A stretch of DNA of 64,000 bases, taken from contig OZ237736.1 in NCBI GenBank assembly GCA_965178125.1, positions 186,001-250,000 on the forward strand, in the 5' to 3' direction. This DNA is from Bilabrum cf. latius (Eukaryota). This document shows, one piece after another, positions 3,417-38,035 of the stretch (position 1 is its first letter; each line of letters starts with the position of its first letter). The position numbers were made by a program, and so were the translations under genes. The notes under the pieces were generated by a model. It made no database searches, was not told where the DNA came from, and worked only from the letters and a program-made list of their open reading frames with translations.

Positions 3417-3607
3417 AACTGAATACAAGCAAATGTCTAGTAGCCTGCAAGTACAAAGTGAATCTAGGAGAGCTGTCACCGGCCAATTATTGTGTAGACT
3501 ATGACTAGATCTGGATCTATGGACCGGCGCCGCGACCGCCTGCGTACAGTGCCGTGCACCCATCGCGTCCGGCTCGTCATTTTGCTGTCGAAGGCATCGT
3601 TTGCGCC

Positions 3608-6600: not shown

Positions 6601-6672
6601 CCCAGCGTGCTGCCGGACCAGCCGTTCGAGGTCGACTACGTGCGTGCGTGGAAGCCATCGGGTAGTGTGTGA
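3608..6672 (+). CDS. Secreted iduronate-2-sulfatase-like sulfatase fused to a C-terminal GH16 domain (2 exons: 3608-4567, 4822-6672)
   Basis: Signal peptide, NVLFLYVDDMRP, NANV[TAG]QAICCPSRTSTLTGRRPD (CxPxR motif), GFHRPHLP and GDH|GWQLSEHG across the intron. The frame continues through TAG 5683 into WDEFDG..WEGRQPGWF and through TAG 6208 to the EIDMFE motif and FEVDYVRAW. Ends at TGA. Confidence 0.85.
4568..4821 (+). other. Spliceosomal intron (GTGAGT...GCAG), phase 0
   Basis: Removing it restores the conserved sulfatase motif GDHGWQLSEHG. Confidence 0.85.
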
Positions 6673-8941: not shown

Positions 8942-9066
8942 GCTACCCGATGCTGTTCGTGACTTTCTTGTTCAAGTTGATCCACAATGACAGTGGTTCT
9001 CGTTCTCATTGCATTCGTTTTGAACAATGTATGGCTGTCTAGCAGGATACCATCCAGTGCATAATA

Positions 9067-12000
9067 ATGAATAATTCGAAAGCTTCATTGGTCTTCACGG
9101 GCGTCGTAGCATTGATTTGGGGCTGGACTGCGAGTATTCGAATCCATGCTGCTGAGATCCATGGTCATGTGTTCTCCCGAGCGCAGCACCCGTACCATCT
9201 GGTTAATCCTATAGCTATATGTTTAAAGCGGGTCTCAGATTCTCACAGCGGGCTAAATTGCACACCAGGATCAGTGGCATTTGCCCATGCAAGGGCCACC
9301 CATGGCAGGAATGCTGACCAGCTTGAGTAGACGTGCGGTGTAGCAAACAGCTAGACATATATTGATGACTTAGGCGACTGTCTGCATCTGGCATCGGAGC
9401 CATGGTTGCAAGATAGTTCGACCAGACTGCGATACCTTGCGACCGACATATGGGCAAAGAACGGATTACTGTTCGCCATAGTGCCCCAAACGCTGGATTT
9501 TCCAATTCGGACAGAATTGATATCGATGCTCACACTAGCAGAATCCCGCAACGACGGCCTGCTCTTCAACCTAGGATCCCCTGCAATCATCCGAGGCTCC
9601 ACCAGTGCTGCGCAGATGCTGCTGGCTTGGAGGCTGCCGCCGTGGATCCTGCCCGATCAAACCATAGCTGTGCAGGTAGTGTACCATACCTACAGAAAGA
9701 ACGTGGTCCTCTGGCACCTGGACGATCGCCCCGAAGCCCCCTTCGGATACAACAGGAACGCCCGCGTGCCCAGCGATCCCATGTGGGCGGGCCGAGCCTC
9801 ACCGCATGGACTAGGGGCAGAGGGCCCGGCACCAACATATTCCACCAATGCAACGCCGATCCGTGGCACTCCCAGCGTGCTAGCATCCCTCATTGCGCTG
9901 CCGCTGGACACCCGGGCATACCTCCCTCAGTGGGCCGCGCATCACGCCAGGCTGGGCATCTCCGCGACTTTGCTGCACCGCAACGATCCGGAGGAGCAGG
10001 CCATCTGCCTCCACAACGAGATGGTGTGGAGGAGCGTGTTGCTGATTGAATGGATCGCGAAGTATTCGCAGGCGATCTCGTCGAGTGACGGCACCAGGCT
10101 CCCGCCGATGCCTCCCGGGACCAACCACACTGCGGCGGCGCAAGCCTGGCTGGCAGCCGCACAGGCGGGTCTATCCCCTGCGCGCAGGACCAGCGAAGCA
10201 CTGTGGGCGAGTCTTGGGCCGGGTCCAAAGAGCCGAGGGTGCTTGCCCTCCTACAGAGTCACGACTATCCGGCCCCAAACTGGAGGCCCGGATGCGGGCG
10301 AGTCACCACAGCCCATGCCGGTGGCCGAAGTGTCGTGGCCGTTCCGATTCTACCACTCCAAGGGCGGAATTGCAACTCAGCAGGGCGAACGGGGGTGGCA
10401 AAAGTTCTATTTCGAGGCTCAGCCCGCTGCCATGACGCACGCCCTGGTCAAGTACGCCAAGGGGATCGGGGGTGGCAGTGGGTTCGACTGGCAGCTGGTC
10501 CTCGATATCGACGAGTACCTGATCTTGCCTGGCTGGGGATTGCCCTTTTCCTTGCGTGGCGCTGCACTGGGCGGGCGAGAGATCACTTCGGCTATCCAGG
10601 AACTAGCAATGGCAGCTGATGCGCAAGCACAGAGAGACGGATACACGGATGCAGGTGCAGTCGTGTTCGAGCGAAGGAATGCCGTCGCCTCCGTGTCCTA
10701 TCGAGGCAAGTCGCTGACCAATGCCACGGCCTGCACCCCGCTCTGGCTGCTCCCTCGCAGCCTGTTCCTGCCCTCGTGTTAGAGTCGCGTGGTGGGACAC
10801 ATGCACAGCCACGACCGGGCAAAGGTCTCCACCGCGTCATCTGCATCGATACCCAAGCACTGCGCGGGCTGGACTGCGCACGGCGAGTCGAAAGACGGGG
10901 ACAAGGTGAGTGGGTCAACCCTCTGCAGTGCAGTGCTCCCAGACGGGTCCAGTGCACAGCCTCACGGCAGCATCGAAAGCGTCCCTGCCTCTGGGCAGTT
11001 CGAGGCTGCTGGCAAGCATAGGTTGGCTCTGTTGGATGCTCACCCCATGCTCCTGGAAGCACCGCGCGTCATACCAGAGGCTGGCACCCCGCGGGGAGGC
11101 AACGTCAAGAGCATGGTGCGGGTCAGGCACGCGGTGGCTTCCGAGATACACATTCACGTGCATGCCCCCTTGTCTCCTGCAGAGCTTGCGCGCGTCAAGC
11201 TCCATCGGTTGCCTTCTGCTGTTGAACAGCCCAGTAGAAGAACAAGCAGATCAGTGTAGCCAGATGCGCTGGAGGCCTCGCTGTCGCCTGTTGCTGCTTC
11301 TCACATGCCCGCCAACTGCATTCGATCTGCTGGTAGTCAGCAAGCTCCCACCGAGTGCGTGGCCTTTGCCCCCTTGTACGATGTGGAGGCACTGGTTGGT
11401 ACCGTGGTATAGTCAGACCATGGCGATAGCACCGCATTCAACGGGACAGTCGTTGGCAATATTGGGCTCAGTCGATCGGGGACTGGATCAACAAGCACGC
11501 CGATTCGTGGGCGAACACCAACGGTCGTGCACCTGGTGGAAATGTCCTGTCGCCCTGGCCCCGCCCCTCACGGCATGGCATTGCCTGCCGAAGAGGGCGG
11601 TGTCCTGCGTGGGAATGGGGCCTCGAGCCAGGAACAGGAGCATGGGAATGGGGCCTCGAGCCAGGAACAGGAGCATGGGAATGGGGCCTCGAGCCAGGAA
11701 CAGGAGCGTGGGAATGGGGCCTCGAGCCAGGAACAGGAGCATGGGAATGGGGCCTCGAGCCAGGAACAGGAGCATGGGAATGGGGCCTCGAGCCAGGAAC
11801 AGGAGCATGGGAATGGGGCCTCGAGCCAGGAACAGGAGCATGGGAATGGGGCCTCGAGCCAGGAACAGGAGCATGGGAATGGGGCCTCGAGCCAGGAACA
11901 GGAGCATGGGAATGGGGCCTCGAGCCAGGAACAGGAGCATGGGAATGGGGCCTCGAGCCAGGAACAGGAGCATGGGAATGGGGCCTCGAGCCAGGAACAG

Positions 12001-12597
12001 GAGCATGGGAATGGGGCCTCGAGCCAGGAACAGGAGCATGGGAATGGGGCCTCGAGCCAGGAACAGGAGCATGGGAATGGGGCCTCGAGCCAGGAACAGG
12101 AGCATGGGAATGGGGCCTCGAGCCAGGAACAGGAGCATGGGAATGGGGCCTCGAGCCAGGAACAGGAGCATGGGAATGGGGCCTCGAGCCAGGAACAGGA
12201 GCATGGGAATGGGGCCTCGAGCCAGGAACAGGAGCATGGGAATGGGGCCTCGAGCCAGGAACAGGAGCATGGGAATGGGGCCTCGAGCCAGGAACAGGAG
12301 CATGGGAATGGGGCCTCGAGCCAGGAACAGGAGCATGGTCGGGAGCAGGAGCAGGCAGGTGCGGATGGGACGGGGGCGCGTTGGGATTGGGCCCTGCATG
12401 GGGAGTACGATGCGTGCGCCCCCCGCTTGATGCTTGAAGCTGCAGCAGAATAGAGGCGGTTGACTGCCGCTGACGGCGTGGAGCAGTTGGGTGCGGCAGG
12501 TGCTGGCGTTGTCGGGTCCTTCGGACCAACTACCCTGCGTGCCTCCAGTGCGATTGCCGGACTTGAGGTGTTGCAAGATGAAAACGTTACATACTGA
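9067..12597 (+). CDS. Putative glycosyltransferase (GT92/DUF23-like, DxD motif) with N-terminal signal/anchor and an 11-aa repeat tract
   Basis: ORFs 9067, 9406, 10789 and 11527 share one frame and are joined by six TAGs (9328, 9352, 10780, 11257, 11410, 12451). Ends at TGA 12595. Motifs YLPQWAAHHARLGI and FDWQLVLDIDEYLI. Confidence 0.6.
11611..12336 (+). repeat. 33-nt tandem repeat x22 encoding (GNGASSQEQEH)n
   Basis: 726 nt = 22 x GGGAATGGGGCCTCGAGCCAGGAACAGGAGCAT; one unit carries CAT>CGT. Confidence 0.95.
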
Positions 12598-12925: not shown

Positions 12926-15900
12926 ATGCAACCGTCTCGGCGTGCCAAGGCTGCCATAGCACCGCCCTACCAGCTGGAGAACCCGGATATGCACGACACC
13001 TTGTGTCGCGTGGCAATGGTCGTTTACCACCACATCAAGCGGGGTGAATAGTAGGCTTGGCAAAGATACAGGTGTCGCGGAGCATGGGACCCAGGTCGCT
13101 CGCCTAAGGTAGAACAGGGTCTCGACGACCTGTCTCCCGAGCTTGAAGAATCCATTCGACTGCTTGCAAAAGTCGCCAGTGGTGGCCCGCAGGCAGGCAG
13201 TGCATTATTGAAGTTGTAGTAGCACTAGATGGGCGCTCGATAGACATAGAGCCCGCGAGAGGCGGTCAGGTCGGGCGAGCACCGTAATGGTGCAATGATC
13301 TTGTCGCCTCAGACCCAAGCGAGCACCGCCTCGGACGGCCGAAGCCTCGTGCACTCGGGCAGGTATTCTTAGGGGTCTCGAGCCATGACGGCGGAAGACA
13401 GCGGTTTCCGTGGGACGGCGATGCCTGATCTGCAGCTTGACGGCGCTCCCGGAAGTCGAGGTGGTTCCGGCACTGGATTGGCCGCCAAACCCGCCGTTTC
13501 CAGTGCAGGAAGAGGTGCATCGGACTCGGGGTACGTACCCCAAGCTCCATCGCTTGGCGGCCAGTTGTCCGGCGCTGCAGTCCCAATCAGCGGGATGCGG
13601 GCCCCACGCCCCGCAGGCCATACAGCCGTCTGGTCCGCCCGGGCGGGAGGTCTACAGCCCTAGATTGGGAGCACTGGCTCCGGATCCCATCAGCAGGAGG
13701 TGCCCGTTGGCAGCCTGCAGCAGTCGTCTTGGCACGGCCCCGCCCTCCTGCAGGCGGCACGCAGGGCCGTGGAGCCCCAGCAGCAGCAGGGCAAGGGTCA
13801 CGTGGATGGCGCGGCCGGATCCCAGACTGGCGCAGGCAGCGGTGCTGGGCTCCTCTCTGTGATGAGGGAGCCCGTTGTTCCCTAGAATGGAACGTCTTCT
13901 CTTGCGCACAGCCAGCAAGCAGCCGCGCGACCGATGGACACTGGCGGTGGGCTGGCCCTGCCATCCAGTAGCGCTGCAGCAGGGGCATCCCGACTAGCCC
14001 CTGCTTCCATTCCATCTCGCGGCGTGCCGGCTCAAGGCAAGAAGAAGAAGCCGCGGCCAGTCACCAGGGCCGGGCGACAGGGCCGCGCAGGCCTCCAGCC
14101 GGGCGGCAACGGGAATGCCGTCACCCAGAGGAGGCGCAGCCGCCTTGCACCGAGCCGGCCTCCCGCCCCTCTCCCGGCCAGGGAACAATCCGTGCTGGAC
14201 GAATCGAAGGAGGATCCGCTGGAAAGGGCTAGATCGAGCGGAGCACATGCTCTGCCCGATGGAGAAAACAAGCAGGCAATCGCTGCAGGGGCATCAGATG
14301 CGCCCTCACACTTGGCGACATCTACGCCGGCCAACTCCATTCTGGCTCCCCTGGGCCCGGACACAGAGCTGGACGTGTCGCTGCAGAGCGCAGGAGAGGG
14401 TACAGCAGAGAGCAACTCGGGCGCACCCGGTGGTGCAGCCAGCAGTGCTGCTCTCTCCGGAGTGAAGCGAGATGTAGCCGCAGGTGTTGCCGCACTCTCA
14501 CCTGGCACAGGGGGCCGGTCAGGCGCACAGCCAGGCACGTACGACCTGGAGTCAGGGAACGGAGGCTTGGCCTAGGATCAAAACCATGGCGTACAACCTA
14601 ACCGATCGATCGATGCAAGCATCCACCTTACCGGAATAGACACCACCGGTGGACTTGACTCCACGGGTGGTTTCGGGGGCGGCAGCGAGCTGAGCGAGGG
14701 CAGCGGGCTGCTGGATGACACGGTTGCCTCGGGTTCCGGCTCTGCCTCGGACGGCTGGCCGCTCAGCTCGCCGGATGCCGCTGCAAATGGCCGCAGTCCT
14801 CGCGCAACCGCGAGCCCTGGCCTCAGCTGGTGGCAGCGGGTCGCCCGGCAGGTGTTTTGCTGCGGCTGCTGCTCGCGGCGTGGAGCTGATACGGACAGTG
14901 AAGGCGGTTCCTCCTCGCCTCGGAGAAATAAAGGCAGGCGCCGTTTGAAGAACAAGAGGGGAAAGAGACGGAGGAAATCAGGAAAGTCCAAGCGCCAGGA
15001 CGGCTTCTAGAGCGATTCCACTGACGACAGCTGGGTGCAGGGCAAGTACGGCGGCGGGAGCAGCGCCTGGTCCGTCGCTGGGGATAGCCATGCCGGGGCG
15101 GATACGGGCGGCAGGGAGCACGGCGGAGGGGCCGCTGGCTCTGCCGGTGAACCGGGGTCAATCAACGGCAGCGGGGCCAGGGGCGGACCCCAAGGAGGGG
15201 ACGGACGGGGGGGCATCGTGGTAGGGTCCGTGGCCGGGACCCCCTTCCTGCTGGCCAGGTCGCACTCTCTCCTCCGAAGCAGGCCCAGGGGCCGGAAGGG
15301 GGCAGCCTCCGCAGCGAGACGGTCGAGGCAGCCCAGTACGACCAGCAGCGCAGGCATCGGGGCTGCGGACGGCGGGCTTGTGCAGCAAGAGACGCCTTCC
15401 ACGGCCGCTCTGCAGCGCTGGTGGGGCCCCGATGATCCATGGGAAGGCCTTCCAGCCGAGACCCACGCGTTTCACGAGCGGAATTACCTAGTTCCGTGCT
15501 ACCGCTACGTGATGGCTCCATCCCCTGGCGTGCTGCTGGGAGGTGCAGGCGCCCATGCAGTGCAGAGGGTGCGTCGGCGGTGGAGCGTGCCCACGCCCGG
15601 GGAGATCTTCGCCTTTGCTGCCCGGCTGTGCCTCCTCGCCCAGCTCACGCCCGAGTGTCCCATCGTCTGCCTCGTGTACCTTGAGCGGGTGCTCCAATCC
15701 AGCGGTGGACGCGTGCTCCTGCTGTCCTGCACTTGGAGGCCTCTCGTTGCCGGCTGCCTGCTGCTCGCCAGCAAGGTGTGGCAGGACCTGAGCACGTGGA
15801 ACGCCGAGGTGGCCGGGATCCTGGGGCTCTACCCGCTGCCCGAAATGAACCTGCTGGAGCGACGGCTCGTTGCCGCCCTCCGGTTCCGCTTGTTCGTGGC

Positions 15901-17125
15901 GCCACGCAGCTACGCGCAGGCCTACTTTGGCCTGCGAAGCCTCGGTGAGCGCGCGAGATTCAGGAAGGACAAGTTTCGGCAGTTCCTGGCAGCAGCTCTG
16001 CCGGATGGGTATGGTCACGGCGTGGGAGCCAAGGGCCCCGCAGCTGGGCCAGTAGGCGGCAGCAAAGGCGCTGCGATGTCGAGGCAGCAAGGAGATGGAC
16101 TGGAGGAGAAAGGCAGTCGGAGCAAGGGCACCGGTGCAGCAGGCGGGGCTGCTGGTGGGGATGCAGGCGGCAAGGGGGCAGGGATGCCGAGGGGGGCTGT
16201 GGATCGGAGCGTGTCGTTCGCCACTTCCGTGTACGGCTGGGGCGATAGCTCGGTGCTGACTGCCCCCACAATTGCGGGGCCCAAGGCCAGGGGCAAGGCG
16301 CTGGAGAGGGCTGCAGCTGCGGCTGCTGCTGCTAGCGGTGGTGAAATGGCCAGCGGCAGTGGGGGTGGAGGGGGCAGGCATGGCACTGGCGGGGCGGACG
16401 GGGGTTCCGTTGCGGGCGGGTCGGTCCGTGATCAGGTGCTCCTTGGGTACGAAGGCAAGGGGCTGCGGGGCAGGGCGTACAGGTCGGGTGCATGGGACGG
16501 TGCTGCTAGTTTGGATGGAGGCGGCAACGATGAGGAGGAGGAGGAGGAGGAGGAGATGGTCAGGACGCAGGATTCGAGGCATGGCGAGCTGACCGGCGGG
16601 GAAAGCGACTTGATGGGTGCATGGGGTGCTCCTGGGAATGCCACAGCGAGCGAGTGGGACGAGGACGGGGACAGGGACAGATCGGGGGCGGGTGCGGGTC
16701 ATGGGCATCATGCCACCAGAGGGGGTGCGGGTGTCGGCACCGCCGCGAGATCTCGCATGGGCGTGCCGATTGCGATCACGAGAGGCAGCAACCGTGTAGC
16801 CGAGAGCTCCGGCCAGGACATGATGCAGGCAGTGGAGGCCGAGGGAGAGTACGGCTCTGCGCAGCTTCGCGGGCTTGGCGTGTCGCGCGGCATGGAGTCG
16901 TTCAATTTCTCGTACGGGCCGCTCGCGCAGAGGGAGAGCGGGAGGGCGAGCACGCCTGATGTATCGCAGCAGGACGTGTCTGGCCTTTCAACCACGGCTC
17001 CTGCTCGGCCTCCCGTGCTTCTCAGGAGGGCGCAGTCAGCCGCGGGTACGGCCGGCATGCACGGGCTGGCTTCGGCTTCGGGCTAGGGCCAGGCGGGACC
17101 GTTCGGCAGCTTGCCAAGGAAATGA
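12926..17125 (+). CDS. CCNY: Cyclin-Y-like protein with long low-complexity insertions (1399 aa)
   Basis: Single 4200-nt frame from ATG 12926 (in-frame TAA just upstream at 12914) to TGA 17123, with 13 internal TAGs. N-terminal ENPDMHDTLCRVAMVVYHHIKRG and cyclin box TPECPIVCLVYLERVL..WRPLVAGCLLLASKVWQDLSTWN..EMNLLERRL..YAQAYFGLRSL both resemble cyclin Y. Confidence 0.8.
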
Positions 17126-17239: not shown

Positions 17240-18522
17240 TCACCGGTCGCTCTGCCCGAATTGCCCAAAAAAGTCCGCCGTCACCCCCGAAGCCTTCCTC
17301 TCCTCTTTTTCCGCCCTCTCTCTTGCCCTCCTCTCGTCCTGCTGCTTGGCCAGGGCCTGAAGATACTGCTGCTTCTTCCTCTGCTCGTTCCTCTTGGCCT
17401 CGAGCTCGTGCCGCTTGACCGCTGCCAGCTGCAGCTGCCGCTCCCGGAGCGCCGCCTCGTCAGCCGCCCTCTCCCTCCGCTTTTCCTCCTCCTTCTCCCT
17501 CGCCTGCTGCAGCATTGCCTCGGCCGCAGCAGCTCTCGCGTCAAATCCACGCCCCCGGAAGTAGTCGGGCCGGATGCGGCCGGGCCCCAGCGCAGATTCC
17601 GCGTCCTCCATCTTCTGGTCCAGTATGCCGGGCAACGTGCCCGCCATGCCCGCCTCGTCTGCCCGTCTCTCCTCCTCTGCCCTCCTGCTAATCTCCCTCT
17701 GTTTCTGCAGTGCCAGCCTCTGGTTTGCCTCTCTCACAGCGTCCCTTCTCTCCTTGGACCTCCGCTCCTCCTCCGCCCTGAAGGCATCCCTCTGCTCGCA
17801 GAACGTGTCCAGCTTCTCCCTCTCCCTCCTGTCCTCCTCCATGCGGGCCTCCTCCTCCCTGCGGCGGGCCTCCTCGCCCTCCAAGCACCAGCGGCGCATC
17901 TGTGCGGCCTGCAGCGCGCCGCGTTCGGCGGCCCTGCCGTCCTCCCCCGCGAAGACCTGCGCGGACGAAGGCCCGAGACTGGGATCGGCGTCCGCGCCGA
18001 CGCCTCGCAAAGGTTTGGATGCTTTCAGTTCCGCTGCCACTGGCCCCGTGGGCTCTCCCGCGGAGCGGGCGGCTCGCTGCTGGGCGAGCTAGCGGCTTCT
18101 GGCCTTTGCAATGGCGCGACCCTGCGCCTTCCTGGCGAGCTCCTGCTCAGCCTCAAACTTTGCAACTGCTCGCATCATGTTCTGTCTCTCTTCAGCTGCG
18201 GATTTCACAATTTAAGAACATGAACCGGTGTAAGTTGCAGTTGCGCGCCACCCGATTCAGTCGCAATTCAGCAGGCTTTGCCACTGGGTGCCTTACCTTC
18301 GATACGCTCCCTCTCCGCTTCTGCTTTTTTTCGTTCCTACTTCTCCCTAATTTGCTACTCGAGGAAAGCCTGGTCTCGCCCCATCGTTCTTAGCCCGGGG
18401 TCCAAAAATCGTTGCCGTCGGGCCTCTTTGCGAGCCCGCAGGGCTTCGATTCTCTTGGCATCCCGCTCTTCCAGAGAGAGAACGCTAGTTTGACTCCTAT
18501 GAGTAAGATCAAGCGCCGACAT
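17240..18522 (-). CDS. RIB43A: RIB43A-like flagellar microtubule inner protein (2 exons: 18522-18297, 18195-17240)
   Basis: RFLDPGLRTMGRDQAFLE[TAG]QIREK, GPSSAQVFAGED, RPDYFRG and C-terminal DFFGQFGQSDR are RIB43A hallmarks. Three TAGs; ends at TGA. Confidence 0.8.
18196..18296 (-). other. Spliceosomal intron (GTAAG...GCAG), phase 1
   Basis: Joins the RIB43A N-terminal exon in frame to the 17240..18040 ORF frame. Confidence 0.75.
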
Positions 18523-18669: not shown

Positions 18670-19837
18670 ATGGCGGCAACCGCGGCTAGGTTGCTTAACA
18701 GGCTTGCAATTGGATCCACTGTGTTGGGTGTAGGCGGATTTGCTTTGTCGAATTGCTTGTATAATGGTGAGGCAACCTGTTGTGCTCAGCTGTTTCCAAT
18801 GGCTTCTATGCTTAGTTTGCAGGTTCTGATTTCTCCTACGCGCGATAATCTTGCGTTTCATACATACCATGTTACAACTAGTGGCCTGTAGTGGCCCTAA
18901 AATGTCTCGAAGTCGTCCACATGAAGACTACGTGGACGCTTTGGACTGCTCTCACGCGTCGCCGCCAAGCCACTTGGTCGACTTTGTAGAGATCTATCCA
19001 GCTCAATGAAATCAAAATATGTATGTTGTTCCCTTCCATCCTGTTTCTGCTCGCTTCTTTGCAGTGGATGGTGGGCATCGCGCCGTGATTTGGGACCGGT
19101 TCAATGGTATCCAGCCCGGCGTGTACGGCGAGGGCACGCATTTCCGAATCCCTCTCCTCCAGTATCCTACCGTATTTGATGTTCGCCTGAGGCCCAGAGT
19201 GATCTCCACGCGAACAGGAACGAAGGATTTGCAGCAGGTCTAGATCGCCTTGCGAGTGCTCGCCAAGCCCGAGGTAGATGCTCTGCCCTCCATCTACAGG
19301 CAGTACGGCGAGGACTACTAGGAGCGTGTCCTGCCCTCTATCATCAACGAAGTGCTCAAGGCCACCGTGGCGCAGTTCGATGCCGAGCAGCTGCTCACCC
19401 AGCGCGACCGCGTGTCCCGCCGCATCCGCGAGACGCTTGAGGAGCGCGCCAAGGAATTCAACCTCATGCTGGACGACGTGTCCATCACCCACCTTGCCTT
19501 CGGCAGGGAGTTCACCCGCGCCATCGAGCACAAGCAGGTGGCCCAACAGGACGCCGAGCGCTCCAAGTTCGTGGTCATGCAGGCCGAGCAGGAGAAGAAG
19601 GCAGCCGTGATCCAGGCAGAGGGCGAGGCGGAGGCAGCGCGCCTCATCTCCGACTCGCTGGCCAAGCACGGTGACGCGGTCATCGACGTGAAGAGGATCG
19701 AGGCATCCAAGGAGATCGCGGCCACGCTGTCCCAGTCCCCCAACGTGGTGTACCTGCCCGGCTCGAGCGGTGGTGGCGCAGCCAGTGGCGGGGGCAGCGG
19801 GTCTCCGTCTCTGCTGCTGAGCGTGGGACGCAGGTGA
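18670..19837 (+). CDS. PHB1: Prohibitin 1 (2 exons: 18670-18766, 19065-19837)
   Basis: [37 protein letters not shown][TAG]IALRVL, GEDY[TAG][40 protein letters not shown]. Ends at TGA. Confidence 0.95.
18767..19064 (+). other. Spliceosomal intron (GTGAG...TTTGCAG), phase 1
   Basis: Removing it restores the conserved [12 protein letters not shown] motif of prohibitin. Confidence 0.9.
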
Positions 19838-20242: not shown

Positions 20243-23200
20243 TCACATGGCCCCGCCCATCCCGTCCATGTACCTCTGGGCCTCCTCCATCCTGCCCTCA
20301 TCCACCAGCATCCCCACCAGCGCCTGCACCGTATGCCTCTACTCCTGGCTCTGCTTGCCCTTCTGCATGGCGATGGCCTCCTCTAGGTGGATCAGCACTT
20401 CGATAGTGTGTGATCGAGGCATAGTTGAAGCTCGGCAGGTCTGTAGCATGTTGTTCAATACAATGGCATAATTAGGGTGTTGCTTGCCCAGCGCGGTCTC
20501 GAAGATCTGCCTGCATTGCTCATACAGCTCCATGGCCTCGCTGTACCGGCCCTACGACTCCAGACACCCAGCCATATTGTTCAGCGTGGTGGCGTATGAG
20601 GGATGCTGATTGCCCAGCGCGGTCTCCTCGATCTGCCTGCATTGCTCATACAGCTCCATGGCCTCGCTGTACTGGCCCTGAGACTTACGACATGCAGCCA
20701 TATTGTTCAGCGTTGTGGCGTAGGAGGGATGCTGCTTGCCCAGCGCGGTCTCCTCGATCTGCCTGCATTGCTCATACAGCTCCATGGCCTCGCTGTACTG
20801 GCCCTGAGACTTAAGACATGCAGCCATGCTGTGCAGCGTGGTGGCGTAGGAGGGATGCTGCTTGCCCAGCGCGGTCTCCTCGATCTGCCTGCATTGCTCA
20901 TACAGCTCCATGGCCTCGCTGTACTGGCCCTAGGACTAGAGACACCCAGCCATATTGTTCAGCGTGCTGGCGTACTCGGGATGCTGCTTGCCCAGCGCGG
21001 TCTCCTCGATCTGCCTGCATTTCTCATACAGCTCCATGGCCTCGCTGTACTGGCCCTAGGACTAGAGACACCCAGCCATGTTGCTTAGCGTGGTGGCGTG
21101 CTCGGGATGCTGCTTGCCCAGCGCGGTCTCCTCGATCTGCCTGCATTGCTCATACAGCTCCATGGCCTCGCTGTACTGGCCCTGGGACCTGAGACACTCA
21201 GCCATGTTGTTCAGCGTGCTGGCGTACTCGGGATGCTGCTTGCCCAGCGCGGTCTCCTTGATCTGCCTGCATTGCTCATACAGCTCCATGGCCTCGCTGT
21301 ACCGGCCCTAGGACTAGAGACACCCAGCCATGTTGTACAGCGTGGTGGCGTACTCGGGATGCTGCTTGCCCAGCGCGGTCTCCTTGATCTGCCTGCATTG
21401 CTCATACAGCTCCATGGCCTCGCTGTACTGGCCCTAGGACTCCAGACACACAGCCATGTTGCCTAGCGTGCTGGCGTACTCGGGATGCTGCTTGCCCAGC
21501 GTGGTCTCCTCGATCTGCCTGCATTGCTCATACAGCTCCATGGCCTCGCTGTACTGGCCCTGGAACTCCAGACACACAGCCATGTTGTTCAGCGTGCTGG
21601 CGTACTCGGGATGCTGCTTGCCCAGCGCGGTCTCGCGGATCTGCCTGCATTTCTCATACAGCTCCAGGGCCTCGCTGTACTGGCCCTAGTATCTGAGACA
21701 CACAGCCATGTTGCCCAGCGTGGTGGCGTAAAAGGGATGCTGCTTGCCCAGCGCGGTCTCCTCGATCTGCCTGCATTGCTCATACAGCTCCATGGCCTCG
21801 CTGTACTGGCCCTGGGACTTGAAATTGCTAGCCAATTTAAAGAGAGCCGATGCGAACACTATCCAAACTTCGCTCGATTTGCCGTTGGCAACGTCTATTG
21901 CTTTGGCATCGCATTCAAGTGATAAGCAAGCCATGCCCATGCATCCAAGCCCGGCGGATCGTGTGGATATCCCTCGAAGCACTTCCTGAACGCCACTCAC
22001 ATCTGCACCTCCGACCCGCTGCATGCGCGCCAGCTCTACAACAACTGCAATTGCACCCTCGGATGGCTTGCTGCGGTGGACGCCACCGGCAGCCGCAAGA
22101 TTAGTGCCTACACAGGAGTGAGATGAGATTCCAATTCGGTCCACATCCTGTCCAGTATGCGAGACCCTGTGCATGTATGAAGCCCCTGAGTCTACCACAC
22201 CAGCTCGAGCGAAATACTGCGCAACGTCTGCAACGCCTCGAAACATACTCTTGACTCGAGCGCTACAGTGAAGTGTCTCCAATGCATCCCGGTCGGAAGA
22301 GAGCCACGGTCTACAGCTGCATCCAACAGCTAGTATCGCCTGCGATGATTCCAGGTCGCCCTTCAGCTGATCCACGAGAAGACGCACATGCCTCAGCCCC
22401 AGCCCAAACGAATGCATCACGCGCTTCAGCACGCCACGATGCACATCGAAATCAGCCTGCACATCCACATCCACAGTGCGACACACCTCCAGCGCCAGCT
22501 CATCGCGGTACCGATCCACAATCTCAGCACGAGCCTTTGCATACAGCTTCCCGATGCATTCTCGAGCTCGTGACCTGGCCCCGACATCTCCTGCCATGAT
22601 CAGGTCAGGGCTCAGGCCCTCGAATGTATCATCGCCCTCCAGCTCCCGCAGCCGATGCGCGGCCTCGGGGGGCAGCAAGCACGTCATGGCCACATTGCCA
22701 GAGTAGTACCACCGGGGACATGCCACGATCGCAACCATGACCACCTGCCTGCTGCTATCCTTGGCGATGGCACTGACACAGCCCGTGTCCAAATGGCGCT
22801 GCATGTCATCGGGCAGGAAGCGAATCCCATCCTAGCCATCAATGGAGTCGCACCAGCGCTGCAGGGCACCTGACAGGCGAGAAAATGACAACACTTTTGA
22901 TGTTCTCTCCTCGTCCCTGATGATGCAGAATGAGTCCAGCTGACCATGACACGTAGCAGGATCAATACTGGGATCAGCAGAAGCCCCGCGTGTCGTATCG
23001 ATCGCCCACACCTGCGGCTTTGCCTCATCCGACTCCATCCAGTCCATCCACACCACATCAGGAATCAGCAGCCGGTGCGTGTCCAGCACCACCCGCTGCC
23101 CGCTGGTCAGCTGATGCACCTCCACGTCGAATGGAAGATGCATGTTGACCTTCATTCCGTGCTTCTGATCGCACACGTGCTCCACATTAGGCAGTGGCTT

Positions 23201-24937
23201 CCTGTAGTCCAGATTCACACCAGTCCTCTCGATCGCGGCATACACAGCCCGGGCCAGCTCCTGCTCCTGCGGTGTGAGTCTCTTCTCATCCTCCTCCGCC
23301 AAATTCATGCGGGCGGGATCCAGTGCCTCCCTGAGGCGCTACACGCTGGCTGCATCCATGCCGCGATCCTGCAACACATCCAGGAAGGTGCGTGCAGGCG
23401 CAGGGCCAGAGCCAGCAGCAGCGGCGCCAGACGTACCATCGCCAGGGCTCGATACAACGTATTTGTGGTTCACCAGCGTTCGAACATTCCGATCCACATT
23501 CTAGGCAATCCCAAAATGCCGGGCTAGTGGCTTCACCACGTCCTCCAACTGCTCCTTGTCCTGATGCATGCTGATTCTGCCGTCCGATGAGCCCACGCGC
23601 AGAGTCGTCTCACGGACCGAGGCATCGAATGCAGCCTCAAATGCCCCAGCATCCGGATCCCGCCCATCGTGTTGCTCCCGGTACAAGGCCCGGAATGCAG
23701 CCTCATTCCATGCCATACAGCCCCGCACATCCACGCGAGCAAAAGCCTGCACGCGAAGCACGTACCAGCCACCACCAGACACATCCACTCGCACATCCAC
23801 GCACTCTAGCAGAGGCGTCGACACGTGCACGCTGTCCATCGCATGCACCCAACGACTCGCCGCCGCCTCCCGCTTCGCCGCCTTGGCCGCCATGCGCGTG
23901 CTGCCGTAGATGCCCAGGTGGTCGAATGCGAACTTCAGGAACAGACCCAGGCCCTCATGCACTGCCTTGATGCCCCCGGCCATGCCCCCCGCATCGATGA
24001 ACTTGAGACCCAGGGCCTCCTCGATCTTGGCCTTGTCCCCATCGGTGAAGCCCACGGGGTCCAGCAACCTGTCCCCGCGCCTCCATTTCATCTCCACCTC
24101 GGGGAAGCCCTCCAGCGCCTTGCGCACGTCCTGCCTGAAGAGCACACCGATGCGGTCTAGCTTTCGCTTGCGGTCCTGCTGCTCGTGCGGCCACAGGGCC
24201 ACGGTGCGCTTGGCGGCCTCGAATGCGGGCTGTCGGCCTCGGGGGCTGGTAGCCTTGTCGTCATCATCATCGTTCCCATCATCACATGGTACGTCTAAGC
24301 TTTGTCCGTCCCGTGCCGTGCCAGCATCAGCTGCCCCGCTGTACACGGAACTGATGCCTGAAGCACCAGTGGATGCCCCTGCATACCGGGCTGGGGAGGG
24401 CGCGGGATCGTCTGCCCCTGCACCCGATGCAGCAGGGGACTAGTTGGATGTAACTGCGTCTTCAATACCAGGGCCTCGATCAGTGGTCCGACCTGATGTG
24501 GGCTCGGGGCTGCTGGCCTTCGTGGGCTCGGCGGGATCGTATTGGTGGGGTAGGTCAGCGGCGGTAGTAGATTCGCCGAGAGTTGCATTACTCTATGCAG
24601 TCGATACACGTGCGTCTGCATCGCATGTAACGACGAGATTCGCCTCAATGGAAGCAGTGTTCGACCCTGATGCTGTGTCAGGAGACGGATCCGTAGCATT
24701 CTCTTGCACCGCAGCCTCGCCATTCCCAGTGGCTTTTGGCTCATCAGAACGCTCGTAATTTTGCACTACATCAGCTTCGGCTACGGTCGCGGGTTGGCTT
24801 CCGTCAACTGTGACCTGCTAGTCGCAGAGGCCAGCAGCGTTTTCTTCACCCAAGTCTTGACTTCTTTCGCTGGGGCCTGTAGCGCCTCTCGCAGCACTAG
24901 CTGGCTCATACGGAGAGCCTTTGCTTGGATCACTCAT
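20243..24937 (-). CDS. Clu-domain / TPR-repeat protein, paralogue A (11 x 42-aa TPR; 1564 aa)
   Basis: One frame from ATG 24937 to TGA 20243 with about 16 TAGs. Clu-like motifs GGMAGGIK..FLKFAFDHLGIYGS..AAKAAKRE, VGSSDGR, PFDVEVH..VVLDTHRL and VMHSFGLGLRHV, followed by kinesin-light-chain-type TPRs. Confidence 0.8.
20455..21830 (-). repeat. 126-nt coding tandem repeat x11 (TPR array)
   Basis: The AMELYEQCRQI motif recurs every 126 nt. Confidence 0.95.
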
Positions 24938-25378
24938 ACTAGCAGACGAAGTGTCGGCGATTTGTGAACCGGGAATCTGAGCCCACGGCGCCAGACCAGA
25001 AAAGAACAGTAAAGGTTGGGCAGATCTCGTGGGCGAGGATCTGAATGATTGTAGCTGGGCACTCAAGACAACGGCAAAATACACGAATACACGTATGGAC
25101 TTCTGCAGAAATCTGACACTAATCGGCCAGCCGTAGAAGGCAGAGCTGCACTGCGTGCGGAAAGGGGCGCCCCACCCAAATGGACGGAACCGCAACTAAT
25201 GCCCCTTGCGCGGCGCCAAATCTGGTTTAAATTTTACGTCGCAAAGGTTTACAATCCCGGCCTCATTCGACAAGCACAGACCCTGCCCCACGACCCCCTT
25301 GGTCTCTCCCCCCACCGCGCCACACCTGGGACCCATGACATGCACAAGATCGCCGTTGGTCGACTGCCGCCATCCCAC

Positions 25379-28151
25379 TCACAGACCCTGCGCGCCACCA
25401 CTCCCAGCCCCAGCCCCCGCCCCAGCCAGCCCCGACACCCACACACGCAGCCCCCCGCCATCGTCCCCCGTCGCCGCGAACCTCTCCTCCGCATCCACGT
25501 CGGCTGCCACCACCGGCCGCACGTGACCCGCCAGCCGCGCCATCACCGCACCGGCCGCCGACCTCGCGTGTGGGTCCACCACCGCCGCCTCCCCCGACTC
25601 GGACCCCACCAGGGCGCAGTCGCAGTGCTGCAGGAGAGCCACGCAGCCGTGGGGCGGGGCCAGCACTGGGTCCCTGGGGATCAGCGAGGGCCGCACCAGC
25701 AGGCTAGGGGCCAGCAGCCTCCCGTTCTCACGGGGATCCGCCCACCTCGCCAGCTGGGGCACACTCGCGGGCTTGCCGGCCACCACAGCGGAGGACAACA
25801 GCCCACCACCTGCAGCCGCCGCCGCAGCCGCCCTCGCGTGCAGATCCCCAGGCAGCAGCAGCAGCCTCACCACTCCCGCAGAGTCCAGCGCAGCCAGGCA
25901 CGGTCGCCTGGCGAGGCTGTCGTAGGGCCGGTACGCCAGCTCCAGCACGTACCTGCCTCCTGCCAGCGGCACGTCATCCGTGGCAGCAGGCAGCCCATTG
26001 CCGCCGGTCCTGCTCCTCCTCCCCACATTCCCAGAGGCGCCCATGGACCGACCCCCGTGGCTGCCAGACGAGGCACGGGAGGTGGCCCGCGCCCTGGCAC
26101 CCATGGGAGACACGACGGCACCAGCACCAGCACCAGCACCAGCACCAGCACCAGCACCAGCACCAGCACCAGCACCAGCACCAGCACCGGCACCGGCACC
26201 AGCGCCGCTCCTGGCCCCGCCCACGTGCCTCCCATGCGCAGACGAGCCCGAGGCAGACCCCCGAGAGCTCGACAGCACGGACCCCGCATCCGTCCCGATA
26301 GTGGCCGGGTCACCGTCCTCCCCCCACGTGTACTGCCTGCAGCTCTGGCCCGCCGACTCGAGCTCCAGTGCACCGCTGCTGCCAGTGCCCAGGCTACTCA
26401 CACCAACACCAACACCAACACCAACACCAACACCACCGTTTTGATCACCGCCCCCGATGCTGGCAGCGTCCTCTGCCACGGTCTCGATCGAGCCGCCCGC
26501 GCCTCCTCCTGCTCCTCCTGCCTGAGCACCCCTGCTGCCCCCGCCTCTGCTCACACGCGCCAGCACCCTCACGCCCACCAGGGGCCTCCCCGTCTTGGCC
26601 AGCCGCTGCATGGACCGCTCCAGCAGCAGGGCGGCGATTCTGCCCCGGAGAGTGCCCGCGAACACGGCCAGGCCAGACGGGTCGGCGCACAGGGCCGTCA
26701 CTGGCGAGCCAAGCGCGACCGTCTGCGTGGTCCTGCCGGTCGCCATGGACACCACTGACACCAGCCCACGAGGATACGAATCACCACCACCGGCACCGGC
26801 AGGGGGCAGCGCGCCGGCACCAGCACCTATCATAGCCCCCGCCTGCAGACCCGGCCCCACACCCACGCCGCGCCGCCCGTCCGCCGTGCCCACGCCTTCC
26901 GATCCACCGGTGGATGTGCCGGACCCTCCCCCGAACATCGACCGGAATGACCCCAGGAAGCCCGGCCTGCTGCTGCTGCTGCTGCCACCAGCAGCACCCC
27001 CATCCTCATCTCCATCGTCACCCACGCCCCCGTCCCCGCGCCCACCGGCAGGTCCGTAGGCCCCTGCCAGCGACTCGCCAGGCCTCGACGACCGCGCCAG
27101 CACCACCATGCCGGGCAAGCCAGCCAGGAACAGACCGTGCGTCACGGGACTAGCACACGGAGAACAGCGCGCGCCACACTCACACGGAGCTCGGGACCAG
27201 CCCCGCGTGATCCCGCGGAACCACCACCACCACCACCACCACCACCACCACCACCACCACCACCACCACCACCACCACCACCACCACCACCACCACCACC
27301 ACCACCACCACCACCACCACCACCACCACCACCACCACCACCACCACCACCACCACCACCGGTCGTCCACTGCACCCTCCACAGCACCACGGTCTGGTCC
27401 GTGCTGCACGTCAGCAGGAACGTCCCGTCCGTGCTCCAGCACAGCCCCGACACCGCCCTGGCGTGTGCCCTGGCGCTGGGCAAGCCGGCGTCAAGCGGCG
27501 AGCGGGCGGCTGACTTGCCGTCCTGATCCGATCCCGGTCCACCGGTGGATGCCTGCCTCTTCCGCCTGTCTTCCTGCTGCTTGCGCATGACAGCCTGCCA
27601 CTTGGGCAGCGGGCCCGTACCGCTGTGCCCTGCACCCGACTCAACACCGCCTGATGCCGAGCCGGCAGAACTCGACCCGGATGCCGCACTACCATGCCCT
27701 GCACTGTGGCTTTCGTCTGCGGCCGAGTCCAGACGGGCTAGCGTCTCCACCGTCGCGCCTCCCCGGCTGGACTCCCGGAAGATCCCGCAGACGGCCACTT
27801 TCCCGTCCTCTGTCCCGTAGGCGAACAGGCTCTGGATACTGGCCTGGCCATCGGCAGTGATCGATGATCCAGAGGCATTTTCTGGGCCTTCAGCACCTGC
27901 ACTCTGACCTTCACCACTCCTCGTGACAGCCCGCCTGCCCCAGCTGTCTCTCCCTGGCAAAGCAGTGGGAGGGGCAAACTTCAGGCAGGTCCCGCCGTGC
28001 ATCTGCGTGACAGGCACCCAGGTGGGCAGCACCGGCATGGGGGCCGAGCCCATTCCGATTCTGATTCCGATTCCGGATCCTGTGCCGCCGCCGCCCACGG
28101 AGGAGCCTCGAGGCCGGGTGCTGCCCCGATCAGATCCGGCCCCCTGCTGCC
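25379..28151 (-). pseudogene. 5'-truncated, frameshifted copy of the WDR13-like gene (copy 1)
   Basis: Matches 45111-47696 but lacks the first ~360 codons. At ~27161-27167 it has AGAACAG where the intact copy has AATCA (+2 nt), giving a TGA at 27142. Confidence 0.8.
27221..27360. repeat. (CCA)n/(GGT)n microsatellite, 140 nt (about 47 Gly codons)
   Basis: Pure trinucleotide tract; only 20 nt long in the intact copy (46891-46910). Confidence 0.95.
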
Positions 28152-28181
28152 AATTACTCTCTGCTAGTGTGATGTTGCCCC

Positions 28182-28739
28182 GCTGCCCCGTCCATCTACA
28201 GGCAGTCCGGCGAGGACTACTAGGAGCGTGTCCTGCCCTCCAACATCAACGTGGTGCTCAAGGCCACCGTGGCGCAGTTCGATGCCGTGCAGCTGCTCAC
28301 CCAGCGCGACCGCGTGTCCCGCCGCATCCGCGAGACGCTCGAGGAGCGCGCCAAGGAATTCAACCTCATGCTGGACGACGTGTCCATCACCCACCTTGCC
28401 TTCGGCAGAGAGTTCACCCGCGCCATCGAGCACAAGCAGGTGGCCCAGCAGGACGCCGAGCGCTCCAAGTTCGTGGTCATGCAGGCCGAGCAGGAGAAGA
28501 AGGCAGCCGTGATCCAGGCAGAGGGCGAGGCCGAGGCAGCGCGCCTCATCTCCGACTCGCTGGCCAAGCACGGTGACGCGGTCATCGACGTGAAGAGGAT
28601 CGAGGCATCAAAGGAGATCGCGGCCACGCTGTCCCAGTCCCCCAACGTGGTGTACCTGCCCGGCTCAAGCGGTGGTGGCGCGGCCAGTGGCGAGGGCAGC
28701 GGGTCTCCGTCTCTGCTGCTGAGCGTGGGACGCAGGTGA
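28182..28739 (+). pseudogene. 5'-truncated prohibitin fragment (copy 2)
   Basis: Starts in mid exon 2 after ~30 nt of junction filler, with no promoter or N-terminus. Substitutions hit conserved sites (SIINEV>SNINVV, DAEQ>DAVQ). Confidence 0.85.
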
Positions 28740-29147
28740 GCAGGTGCTGCATTCCATGGATCATGGCCCTCTTTGGGGTCTTGTCGGATAGATTTGGTTT
28801 GGCGTGCACAGGAATCTGTGGTGTGTGACACAGCGACAGGACAAATTTTGAGATTCAATGGTTGACTATTACTTCATGTGAATCGACCCAGAGCACAGGA
28901 GCCAACTACCCCAGGTGCAACTTCAAGATCCGGATTCCGGATGGAATCAGCCTATTCTACAGGGATCACGCCGCACTGCCAACTCTATGAGCCTCAGCCA
29001 GCCCTGACGATCACACAGGATCTTTCGAACCTGATACCGGGTGCAAGTACGAGCGTCCTGCATCTGCCGCATCCACCCGATCCGAATCTGCTGGACCGAA
29101 TGAACCTCCTGGGATCCTTACGAGTTATCCTGCGATCACGCACCCCC

Positions 29148-32100
29148 TCACATGGCCCCGCCCATCCTGTCCATGTACTTCTGGGCCTCCTCCATCCTGC
29201 CCTCATCCACCAGCAGCCCCACCACCTCCTACATTATGTCCCTGTACTCATGGCTCTACTTGCCCTTCTACAGCGACAGGGCCTCCTCTAGCTGGATCAG
29301 CACTTCAATAGTACGGGATCGAGGAATAGTTGAGGCCCGGCATGTATGCAGCATATTTTTCAATACAGTGACATGGTTGGGATGCTGCTTGCCCAGCGCG
29401 GTCTCGAAGATCTGCCTGCATTGCTCATACAGCTCCATGGCCTCGCTGGACCGGCCCTGGGACTCCAAACACCCAGCCATGTTGTTCAGCGTGGTGGCGT
29501 ATGAGGGATGCTGCTTGCCCAGCGCGGTCATGCGGATCTGCCTGCATTGCTCATACAGCTCCATGGCCTCGCTGTACTGGCCCTGGGACTCCAGACACCC
29601 AGCCATGTTGTTCAGCGTGGTGGCGTATGAGGGATGCTGCTTGCCCAGCGCGGTCTCGAAGATCTGCCTACATTGCTCCAGCAGCCCCATGGCCTCGCTG
29701 GACCGGCCCTAGGGCCTGAGACACCCAGCCATGTTGCCTAGCGTGGTGGCATACTCGGGATGCTGCTTGCCCAGCGCGGTCTCGCGGATCTGCCTGCATT
29801 GCTCATACAGCTCCATGGCCTCGCTGTACCGGCCCTAGGATCTGAGACATCCAGCCATGTTGCCCAGCGTGCTGGCATATGAGGGATGCTGCTTGCCCAG
29901 CCCGGTCTCCTGGATCTGCCTGCATTGCTCATACAGCTCCATGGCCTCGCTGTACTGGCCCTGGGACTCCAGACACGCAGCCATGTTGTTCAGCGTTCTG
30001 GCGTACTCGGGATGCTGCTTGCCCAGCGCGGTCTCGCGGATCCGCCTGCATTGCTCCAGCAGCTCCATGGCCTCGCTGTACTGGCCCTGGGACTCCAGAC
30101 ACCCAGCCATGTTGTTCAGCGTGGTGGCATACTCGGGATGCTGCTTGCCCAGCGCGGTCTCCTGGATCTGCCTGCATTGCTCATACAGCTCCATGGCCTT
30201 GCTGGACTGGCCCTAGGACCTGAGACACTGAGCCATGTTGTTCAGCGTGGTGGCGTATGAGGGATGCTGCTTGCCTAGCGCGGTCTCCTCGATCTGCCTG
30301 CATTGCTCATACAACTCCATGGCCTCGCTGTACTGGCCCTGGGAGTACAAACATGCAGCCATGTTGCCCAGCGTGCTGGCATATGAGGGATGCTGCTTGC
30401 CCAGCGCGGTCTCCTTCATCTGCCTGCATTGCTCATACAGCTCCATGGCCTCACTGTACTGGCCCTGGGACTCCAGACACGCAGCCATGTTGTTCAGCGT
30501 GGTGGCGTACTCGGGATGCTGCTTGCCTAGCGCGGTCTCGCGGATCTGCCTGCATTGCTCATACAGCTCCATGGCATCGCTGTACTGGCCCTGGGAGTAT
30601 AAACATGCAGCCATGTTGTTCAGCGTGGTGGCGTACTCGGGATGCTGCTTGCCCAGCGCGGTCTCGCGGATCTGCCTGCATTGCTCATACAGCTCCATGG
30701 CCTCGCTGTACTGGCCCTGGGAGTACAAACATGCAGCCATATTGTTCAGCGTGCTGGCATATGAGGGATGCTGGTTGCCCAGCGCGGTCTCGAAGATCTG
30801 CCTGCATTGCTCATACAACTCCATGGCCTCGCTGTACTGGCCCTGGGACTCTAGACACTGAGCCATGTTGTTCAGCGTGGTGGCGTACTCGGGATGCTGC
30901 TTGCCTAGCGCGGTCTCGCGGATCTGCCTGGATTGCTCATACAGCTCCATGGCCTCGCTGGACCGGCCCTGGGATCTGAGACATTCAGCCGTGTTGTTCA
31001 GCGTGCTGGCGTACTCGGGATGCTGCTTGCCCAGCGCGGTCTCGCGGATCTGCCTGGATTGCTCATACAGCTCCATGGCCTCGCTGTACTGGCCCTGGGA
31101 TCTGAGACACGCAGCCATATTATGCAGCGTGGTGGCGTACTCGGGATGCTGCTTGCCCAGCGCGGTCTCGCGGATCTGCCTGGATTGCTCATACAGCTCC
31201 ATGGCCTCGCTGTACTGACCTTGGGAAATGAAATTGCTAGCCAATTTGAATAAAGCCAACGCAAGCACTGTTGAAGCTTTGCTCGATTCGCCGTTGGCAG
31301 CGTCTATTGCTTTGCTACCGCATTCAAGTGATAAGCAAGCAATGCCTACATATCCAAGCCCGGCAGATCGTGCAGATACCCCGCGAAGCGCTTCCTGAAC
31401 GCCACTCACATCTGCACCTCCGACCCGCTGCATGTGCGCTAGCTCTGTAACAACTGCAATCGCGCCCTCAGATGGCTTGCTGCGGTGGACGCCACCGGCA
31501 GCAGCAAGATCCGTGCCTACACATGAGTCAGACGAGATCACCAACCGGCCCATATCCTGTCCAGCACGAGTGGTCCAGTACAAGTGTGAAGTTCCTGAAT
31601 CTACCACACCAGCTCGAGCAAAATACTACGCAACGTCTGCAAAGCCTCGAAACATACTCTTGACTCGAGCGCTACAGTGACATGTCTCCAATGCATCCCG
31701 GTCGGAAGGGAGCTACGGCCTACAGCTGCATCCCACAGCTAGTATCGCCTGCGATGATTCCAGGTCACCCTTCATCTGATTCGCAAGCAGACGCACATGC
31801 CTCAGCCCCAGCCCAAACGAATGCATCACACGCTTCAGTACACCACGATGCACCTCGAAATCATCCAGTACATCCACATCCACAGTGCGACACACCTCCA
31901 GCGCCAGCTCATCACGGTACCGATCCACAACCTCAGCACGAGCCTTCGCATACAGCTTCCCGATGCACTCTCGAGCTCGTGATCTACCCCCTGCATCCCC
32001 TGCCATGATCAGGTCAGGACTCAGGCCCTCGAATGCATCCTCGCCCTCCAGCTCACGCAGCCGATGCGCGGCCTCAGGAGGCAGCAGGCACGTCATGGCC

Positions 32101-34583: not shown

Positions 34584-35256
34584 TGTGCTTTCTTATATTA
34601 TTATACCCTATCACACCTATGTTTACTCTATCAAGCCCACTATCAGCTATAGAGGGTCCAAATTTGCTTACTTGCTCTCAGCTTAGTTCCGATCTTTGCC
34701 TGACAGCTAGACACGAAGCTATTGAGCCACCCAGGGTGATGCTTGGTTCGTTCACTTTGTCAACGTGGGATCTGTAGAGATGATCTGGCCAAACCAAGCT
34801 TCAGGGGCAGAAAAACCAGGCTGCGGCTAGTCCTTTCTGCGGTTCTCAGCAAGTTGAGAGTGATCTGGTTAGATCTGTGCATCTGACTGGGCACAAGGGA
34901 TCGAGGGCACGCTCAATATATGCTTCATCGATGGTACGAGTACTCGAGAATGTAGCAATGCTCACTTTCTGGGGCTAGGCGGTATGAAACGGAATTGTCC
35001 AGTCGATCGGATGGATTCATGAAATTTGAGTTGCAACCACCGGCGCAAGAAAATGTTGGTTACAACCGGTCGATCGTGTGGGAGTCTAGAGGGGGAACCT
35101 GCAGCCGTCTGCGCGTATTTGATAAGACATACAATCCCGGCCTCATGCGACAAGCTCAAATCATGCACCATGACCCCTTTGATCTCTCCCCCACACCGCA
35201 CCTGGGACCCATGACATGCACAAGATCGCCATTGGCCTCTACTGCCGCCATCCCAC

Positions 35257-38005: not shown

Positions 38006-38035
38006 AATTACTCTCTGCTAGTGTGATGTTGCCCC

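Follow-up and report, generated by a model that had tools for sequence, protein, structure and literature searches.

UAG alone can be translated as glutamine (Gln) while UAA remains a stop, a code described for the fornicate Iotanema spirale, the ciliate Protocruzia tuzeti and some phyllopharyngean ciliates (PMC5304391, PMC11687900). Such split changes of UAA and UAG were described in one report as undocumented before 2017 (PMC5304391), and the lineages with UAG alone as Gln amount to a handful in a list of 2024 (PMC11687900). According to the same list, both UAA and UAG (UAR) encode Gln in many ciliates, Ulvophyceae, Hexamita, Streblomastix strix and Amoeboaphelidium protococcarum (PMC11687900); Amoeboaphelidium genomes are given as having a guanine plus cytosine (GC) content of about 40% (PMC10608142). 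Here, we analysed a stretch of 64,000 nucleotides of contig OZ237736.1 (positions 186,001 to 250,000; hereafter the window, with positions counted from its first letter), in which a tandem family of genes combining a CLU domain with kinesin-light-chain-type TPR repeats carries TAG codons within the reading frames. The best explanation, with a probability of about 0.9, is that UAG encodes Gln in a GC-rich, intron-poor eukaryote whose genes mostly terminate at UGA and less often at UAA, a code of the NCBI table 15 type.

The window resembles Iotanema, Protocruzia and the phyllopharyngeans in that TAG is a sense codon paired with Gln codons, TAA does not occur in frames and lies at two gene ends, probably as a stop, and UGA is a stop. 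It differs from them in its organism, which is GC-rich and lies near Cafeteria in a prohibitin tree, and in the kind of evidence, given that the code is read here from the genes, whereas tRNA and eRF1 have been described there. With the UAR codes it shares the reassignment of a stop to Gln and the use of CAG and TAG side by side, but TAA is not a sense codon in the window, the GC content of 61% is far from that of Amoeboaphelidium, and the green algae and fungi are distant from the query in the prohibitin tree. Bacteriophages with 'code 15' also read TAG as Gln, with recoding of their late genes. The codon and its new meaning are the same; unlike these phages, however, the window is eukaryotic nuclear DNA with spliceosomal introns, and every gene examined in it is recoded.

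TAG and CAG in the CLU/TPR genes

Three paralogues of the CLU/TPR gene lie in the window. Paralogue A is on the minus strand, so its TAG codons appear as CTA on the plus strand.

20243–25378, minus strand: paralogue A, CLU and kinesin-light-chain-type TPR gene, an open reading frame (ORF) with TAG read as Gln
20438–21823, minus strand: eleven TPR units of 126 nucleotides in paralogue A
20552, 20930, 21056, 21308, 21434 and 21686: TAGs at column 4 of the units of paralogue A (CTA on the plus strand)
20936, 21062 and 21314: TAGs at column 2 of the units of paralogue A (CTA on the plus strand)
29148–34583, minus strand: paralogue B, 15 TPR units, 9 in-frame TAGs
31626, 31713, 29709, 29835 and 30213: TAG sites of paralogue B, the first in VAQYF, the second opposite TGG in A, the last three at column 4
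39002–44437, minus strand: paralogue C, a near-identical tandem copy of B with 15 units and the same 9 TAGs

The initial annotation had reported that the Gln of the SQG motif in the TPR repeats is TAG at six sites of paralogue A and CAG in other units. All six sites fall at column 4 of the repeat, the position of this Gln, and among the 26 units of A and B the column holds CAG 16 times, TAG nine times and CAA once, and nothing else; the 15 units of copy C equal those of B and were left out of this count. Column 2 is variable, with GAG in nine units, AGA or AGG in seven, AAG, TAG and TAC in three each and ATT in one, and the other Gln columns of the repeat (6, 16, 19 and 28) contain no TAG. Units A4, A6 and A7 have both of their TAGs in common and unit duplication copies codons, so the nine TAGs of column 4 represent fewer than nine mutational events. 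The clarity with which these repeats display the recoding comes from an invariant Gln combined with units that are copied by duplication and conversion.

Further sites reported at the outset behave in the same way. In the SVQRL segment (23339) TAG in A stands opposite CAG in B, and in VAQYF (31626) TAG in B stands opposite CAG in A, while in the CSTDQTVVLW segment of a WD-repeat gene (46944) the third copy has TAG and the first and second have CAG. The pairing of TAG with other codons at variable sites was also recovered (21062 with GAG, 23501 with AAG, 31713 with TGG).

The product of paralogue A comprises 1711 residues with 17 in-frame TAGs and a TGA end, its true start being uncertain. Its TPR array passes the Pfam gathering score for TPR_12 with an E value of 1.9e-156, and a second E value for the CLU/TPR arrays is 3.3e-201 (509 and 652 bits, against a cut-off of 30.1); a weak CLU match (E 1.1e-06) lies in the N-terminal part of A. 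The units, 11 in A and 15 in B, are each exactly 42 residues apart, as in the known kinesin-light-chain-type arrays (TPR_12, TPR_10) joined to CLU. A protein-atlas search with a TAG-free stretch of paralogue B returned only CLU-domain clusters. For the N-terminal 800 residues, a search of 5.8 billion proteins found a single weak relative, and the family in this architecture therefore appears to be lineage-specific.

Codon counts and gene ends

The DNA is eukaryotic and nuclear, as its spliceosomal introns and a flagellar protein gene indicate. Besides the TPR arrays, Pfam recognised GH123, a C2H2 zinc-finger array, sulfatase, GH32, a cyclin domain, RIB43A, prohibitin, WD40, GH3, ankyrin and LRR/RCC1, which are ordinary eukaryotic genes. 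The genes that bear most on the code are as follows; L001 is a metagenome contig from a related organism.

45111–48887, minus strand: full-length WD-repeat gene, copy 3, with TAG at 46944–46946 in CSTDQTVVLW
about 25379–28245 and 35257–38099: 5'-truncated WD copies 1 and 2, with CAG at the CSTDQTVVLW site
19064–19837, plus strand: prohibitin exon 2 (Pfam Band_7), preceded by an intron at 18766–19063 and ending in TGA
19241 and 19319, plus strand: prohibitin TAGs, the second also TAG in L001
17240–18195, minus strand: RIB43A exon with an intron at 18196–18296 and TAG at 18089–18091, where L001 has CAG
49177–52029, plus strand: GH3 beta-glucosidase-like gene, 5 in-frame TAGs
3458–4705, plus strand: sulfatase exon, TAG at 3806 (residue 117) directly before the CxPSR motif
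56297–61645, minus strand: RCC1/LRR/ephrin-receptor-like membrane protein gene, 10 in-frame TAGs
12926–17125, plus strand: cyclin-domain gene, 13 in-frame TAGs, TGA end, syntenic with L001
52225–53046, minus strand: ankyrin-repeat ORF, 3 in-frame TAGs, TAA end at 52225–52227
1833–3563, minus strand: C2H2 zinc-finger array gene, 13 units of 29 residues, 4 in-frame TAGs

Codons were counted in 15 Pfam-supported genes or exons of the window (13,827 codons). This set excludes copy C, the two truncated WD copies, the prohibitin fragments of the tandem units, ORFs without clear Pfam support (53629–54921 and others) and a reverse-transcriptase fragment (61758–62606) whose Pfam match is below the cut-off. 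Every supported gene carries in-frame TAG, and the whole set contains 82 TAGs, no TAA and no TGA within its frames, with TGA at the end of 14 genes and TAA at the end of one. The out-of-frame density of the three triplets predicts 76.5 TAG, 37.5 TAA and 245.5 TGA in frame, so that TAG occurs about as expected and the other two are absent. If TAG is Gln, the Gln codons are shared among CAG (71%), CAA (18%) and TAG (11%). With TAG as a sense codon the longest frames grow from 945 to 1815 codons, and the window opens into frames of 1712, 1815, 1815, 1786, 1403, 1283, 1269 and 1003 codons, whereas the top of the list is unchanged when TAA is read as sense. Neither the base 3' of TAG nor the location of TAG along the genes showed a striking bias.

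These counts bear directly on the possibility that UAA and UAG both encode Gln (NCBI table 6 type) and that TAA is merely rare from the high GC content, a reading that we regard as very unlikely. It would agree with the predominance of TGA at the ends of the supported genes, with the rarity of TAA, which at 61% GC (from base counts) has fewer occurrences in the window than either of the other stop triplets (153 on the plus strand), and with the mostly coupled change of UAG and UAA among the known reassignments described in one report (PMC5304391). Yet the in-frame TAAs number zero where 20 to 37.5 are expected, the lower figure being derived from the CAA/CAG ratio (0.247), and no Gln position was found to be occupied by TAA. 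All upstream in-frame TAAs precede start codons, and TAA as sense extends frames only there. Two gene ends also bear on this. The terminator of the L001 prohibitin is TAA at exactly the residue where the window has TGA, and the ankyrin ORF, the only supported gene in the window with a TAA end, has a repeat that does not continue downstream of that TAA. Taken with the lack of in-frame TAA, these two ends suggest that UAG alone has been reassigned.

Identity of the residue

Several sites outside the TPR repeats identify the residue as Gln. Column 18 (LQSLDLS) in the six 53-residue LRR units of the membrane protein gene is encoded by CAG in three units and TAG in three. At residue 68 of the GH3 gene (49378) the window has TAG, and 28 of the 40 homologues aligned (the best 40 of 120 listed) have Gln. 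Residue 117 of the sulfatase is Gln in three of the four PDB alignments listed (iduronate-2-sulfatase 5fql and 6ioz, arylsulfatase 6hhm) and Ser in the choline sulfatase 6fny. The truncated WD copies comprise the 3' two-thirds of the gene, and at the 46944 site the ortholog in L001 has CAG as they do.

The comparison with L001 extends this to orthologues. The contig has 88% protein identity to the window in prohibitin, a GC content of 0.59 and the same order of cyclin-like, RIB43A, prohibitin and WD-like genes, and these four genes contain 18 in-frame TAGs, no TAA and no TGA. At the 12 well-flanked TAG sites, defined by identity of at least 5 of 8 flanking residues between the window and L001, the partner is CAG six times, CAA twice, TAG once and an Arg codon three times. 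Over all 22 aligned TAG sites the partners are CAG (7), AAG (3), CAA (2) and AGA (2), and CGT, GAA, CAT, AAC, GGT, TAG, CGC and GGC once each. The well-flanked pairs within the Gln set (CAG/CAG 33, CAA/CAG 12, CAG/TAG 6, CAA/TAG 2, CAA/CAA 2, TAG/TAG 1) indicate that TAG is kept or exchanged much like the minor codon CAA.

Against this background it is very unlikely that TAG stands for some other amino acid, or that near-cognate read-through gives it an ambiguous meaning. Such a reading would draw on the prohibitin TAG common to the window and L001, which stands in a column of Asp and Tyr and never of Gln, and on the variable sites where TAG faces codons for Lys, Glu, Arg, Tyr, Leu, Trp or Ser. 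From residue 330 on, the partners of TAG between paralogues A and B are CAG (13), TAC (2), GAG (2), AAG (1), TTG (1) and TGG (1), and the non-Gln partners in paralogues and repeat units are mostly one base away, as for any sense codon; several non-Gln partners in L001 differ by two or three bases. At positions that are otherwise invariant (TPR column 4, LRR column 18, the WD40 site, GH3 residue 68 and sulfatase residue 117), however, the partners of TAG are CAG and CAA only, and nine of the 12 well-flanked partners in L001 are CAG, CAA or TAG.

Codon exchange and decay

The initial annotation had proposed tabulating codon exchanges, with the expectation of a synonymous-like rate for CAG and TAG, and this was carried out within the window on the non-repeat core of A and B (842 aligned codons). 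There, CAG/TAG is mixed at 2 of 23 sites, compared with 4 of 39 for the synonymous pair CTG/TTG, 25 of 309 for the pooled synonymous third-position A/G pairs and 4 of 147 for the pooled non-synonymous first-position C/T pairs. In the repeat region, where the units are not aligned one to one, 11 of 42 CAG/TAG sites are mixed. Within the small numbers involved, the exchange in the core is compatible with a synonymous-like rate, in line with what had been proposed.

A different origin of the TAGs, by C-to-T deamination or by repeat-induced point mutation in decaying duplicates, is suggested by the change itself, given that CAG to TAG is C-to-T at CpA, and also by the fact that the clearest cases lie in tandemly duplicated genes and that A and B have no TAG site in common. 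Comparable numbers of CAA-to-TAA and CGA-to-TGA changes had been named in advance as the sign of such decay. Between A and B, 14 single-base pairs of CAG and TAG were found, with no CAA/TAA, no CGA/TGA and no TGG/TGA, and the view of TAG as a sense codon stands. A C-to-T model scaled to the 82 TAGs of the supported set expects 14.9 TAA and 36.1 TGA in frame, of which none was observed. Moreover, TAG also occurs in the single-copy genes for RIB43A and for prohibitin, the latter spliced and covered by contigs at high depth; of the WD copies, the intact one has TAG where the truncated ones have CAG; L001 has TAGs in the same genes, with one site shared; and protein similarity runs in frame past the TAGs to conserved C-termini. 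Decay as the source of these codons is thus barely credible.

RNA evidence

Contigs from the sequencing runs X6 and X8 join 18195 to 18297 in RIB43A (GT..AG on the minus strand) and 18765 to 19064 in prohibitin (GT..AG). These contigs therefore stem from RNA that had been spliced. The TAGs at 18089, 19241 and 19319 lie within them, and no letter differs there. The contigs of two more runs, X1 and X2, agree in these letters, and their listed variants all lie away from the TAGs. With T at all three covered TAGs in spliced contigs of two runs, which rules out RNA editing, and with two further runs in agreement, the idea that the TAGs are corrected by U-to-C editing or arose as sequencing or assembly errors has a negligible probability, and nothing was found in its favour. 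The frames across the window, the outside homologues, the spliced RNA and the orthologues in L001 agree with the proposal of the initial annotation that TAG is an ordinary sense codon.

Some of the variant contigs in X1 and X2 may derive from the prohibitin fragments of the tandem units. An RNA contig with the prohibitin exons reaches 20294. TPR gene A converges on prohibitin with its stop at 20243, and the contig runs into its 3' end.

Interpretation

Several observations weigh against a code in which UAG is Gln and UAA is still a stop. When the window and L001 were scanned for tRNAs and with Rfam, neither scan gave a hit, and no tRNA gene was detected. TAA was seen as a putative terminator at two gene ends only, those of the ankyrin ORF and the L001 prohibitin. 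Four of the five TAG sites in the GH3 gene are variable or lie in gaps. At the prohibitin TAG of residue 60 the homologues have Asn (45), Ser (33), Thr (19) and Gln (19), and at residue 86, which is TAG in both the window and L001, 120 homologues include 95 with Asp, 8 with Tyr and none with Gln. The aligned sites of A and B comprise 13 mixed and 52 CAG/CAG pairs and no TAG/TAG; this absence of shared TAGs would fit a fast turnover, and recent independent hits as well. Finally, runs X6 and X8 were taken as RNA solely on the splicing of their contigs, the RNA label being a guess and none of the listed runs with this DNA being recorded as RNA.

The translation of UAG as Gln would require a tRNA-Gln able to read UAG, in the simplest case with a CUA anticodon derived from tRNA-Gln(CUG), together with an eRF1 that is blind to UAG and still recognises UGA and UAA. 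Both components are suggested by analogy with other lineages.

Nuclear code changes are rare and have usually been met in AT-rich genomes; a change that separates UAG from UAA is rarer again. A tentative interpretation, which we hold at somewhat below even odds, is that an independent and undescribed change of UAG alone to Gln took place among a few GC-rich heterotrophic flagellates that form a small clade close to the bicosoecids, with at least two organisms (those of the window and of L001), and that it would be the first nuclear code change in stramenopiles and one that arose in a GC-rich genome. In the literature searched, which covered few subscription journals, no nuclear UAG reassignment in stramenopiles or bicosoecids was found. 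If independent, the change would be a further data point against the view that UAG and UAA have to change together, and the organism, which is possibly cultivable, could be used for studying how eRF1 loses UAG yet keeps UAA. For annotation, the implication is that standard gene callers would fragment nearly every gene of such a genome.

The organism and its relatives

In a FastTree phylogeny of 121 prohibitin sequences, the query and Cafeteria roenbergensis belong to one nine-member clade (local support 0.97), and green algae, a red alga, a plant and fungi are much farther away. This placement near Cafeteria, a stramenopile, is a lead drawn from one gene in a tree where most rows are unnamed. 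The best prohibitin match is 73% identical, and the protein databases searched contain no intact copy of the proteins of the window. Near-identical DNA and spliced RNA occur in runs of four studies under four organism labels, which suggests that the organism may be in culture. An aphelid origin was considered and rejected on the GC content (61% as against about 40%; PMC10608142) and on the lack of near-identical NCBI proteins.

Among more distant loci, three short contigs (L002, L003 and L007) with prohibitins about 70% identical contain no in-frame TAG and show no lengthening of frames, a weak sign of standard-code use. The stops within the matches of 17 other loci fall in gaps, in introns or at the ends.

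The tandem block and neighbouring genes

Three tandem units of about 9.85 kb each occupy 19283–47695 of the window, and each consists of a prohibitin 3' fragment, a CLU/TPR gene and the 3' part of a WD gene. The prohibitin fragments begin near residue 77 of exon 2 and keep the TAG of residue 86. Alignment of 26160–37067 with 36002–46910, the blocks of B and C, gives 99.2% identity, and A is about 90% identical to them; the near-identity of B and C might reflect a very recent duplication or an effect of assembly. In L001 (1–8762) a WD-like gene directly follows prohibitin with no CLU/TPR gene between them, and the organism of the window may therefore have gained the tandem CLU/TPR block by an insertion or expansion of its own.

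WD copies 1 and 2 contain a long triplet microsatellite (about 27240–27340 and 37070–37190) that reads as poly-Gly in the gene frame and poly-Trp in another, and soon after it the frame changes relative to the intact copy 3. Owing to these two features, both truncated copies are probably pseudogenes.

In the zinc-finger gene (1833–3563) one TAG lies directly before the TGA stop, a position at which either reading of TAG is possible from the window. Downstream of the sulfatase exon, 4777–6672 on the plus strand holds a sulfatase C-terminal-like stretch and a weak GH16-like match in a frame that differs from that of 3458–4705, and the two may be exons of one gene split by an intron. A weak glycosyltransferase-2-like match was found at 8863–12597 (plus strand), with about 23 tandem units of 11 residues (GNGASSQEQEH) near the C-terminus. 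At 61758–62606 on the plus strand, an ORF bounded by TAA has a weak RVT_1 match below the Pfam cut-off and is probably a retroelement remnant.

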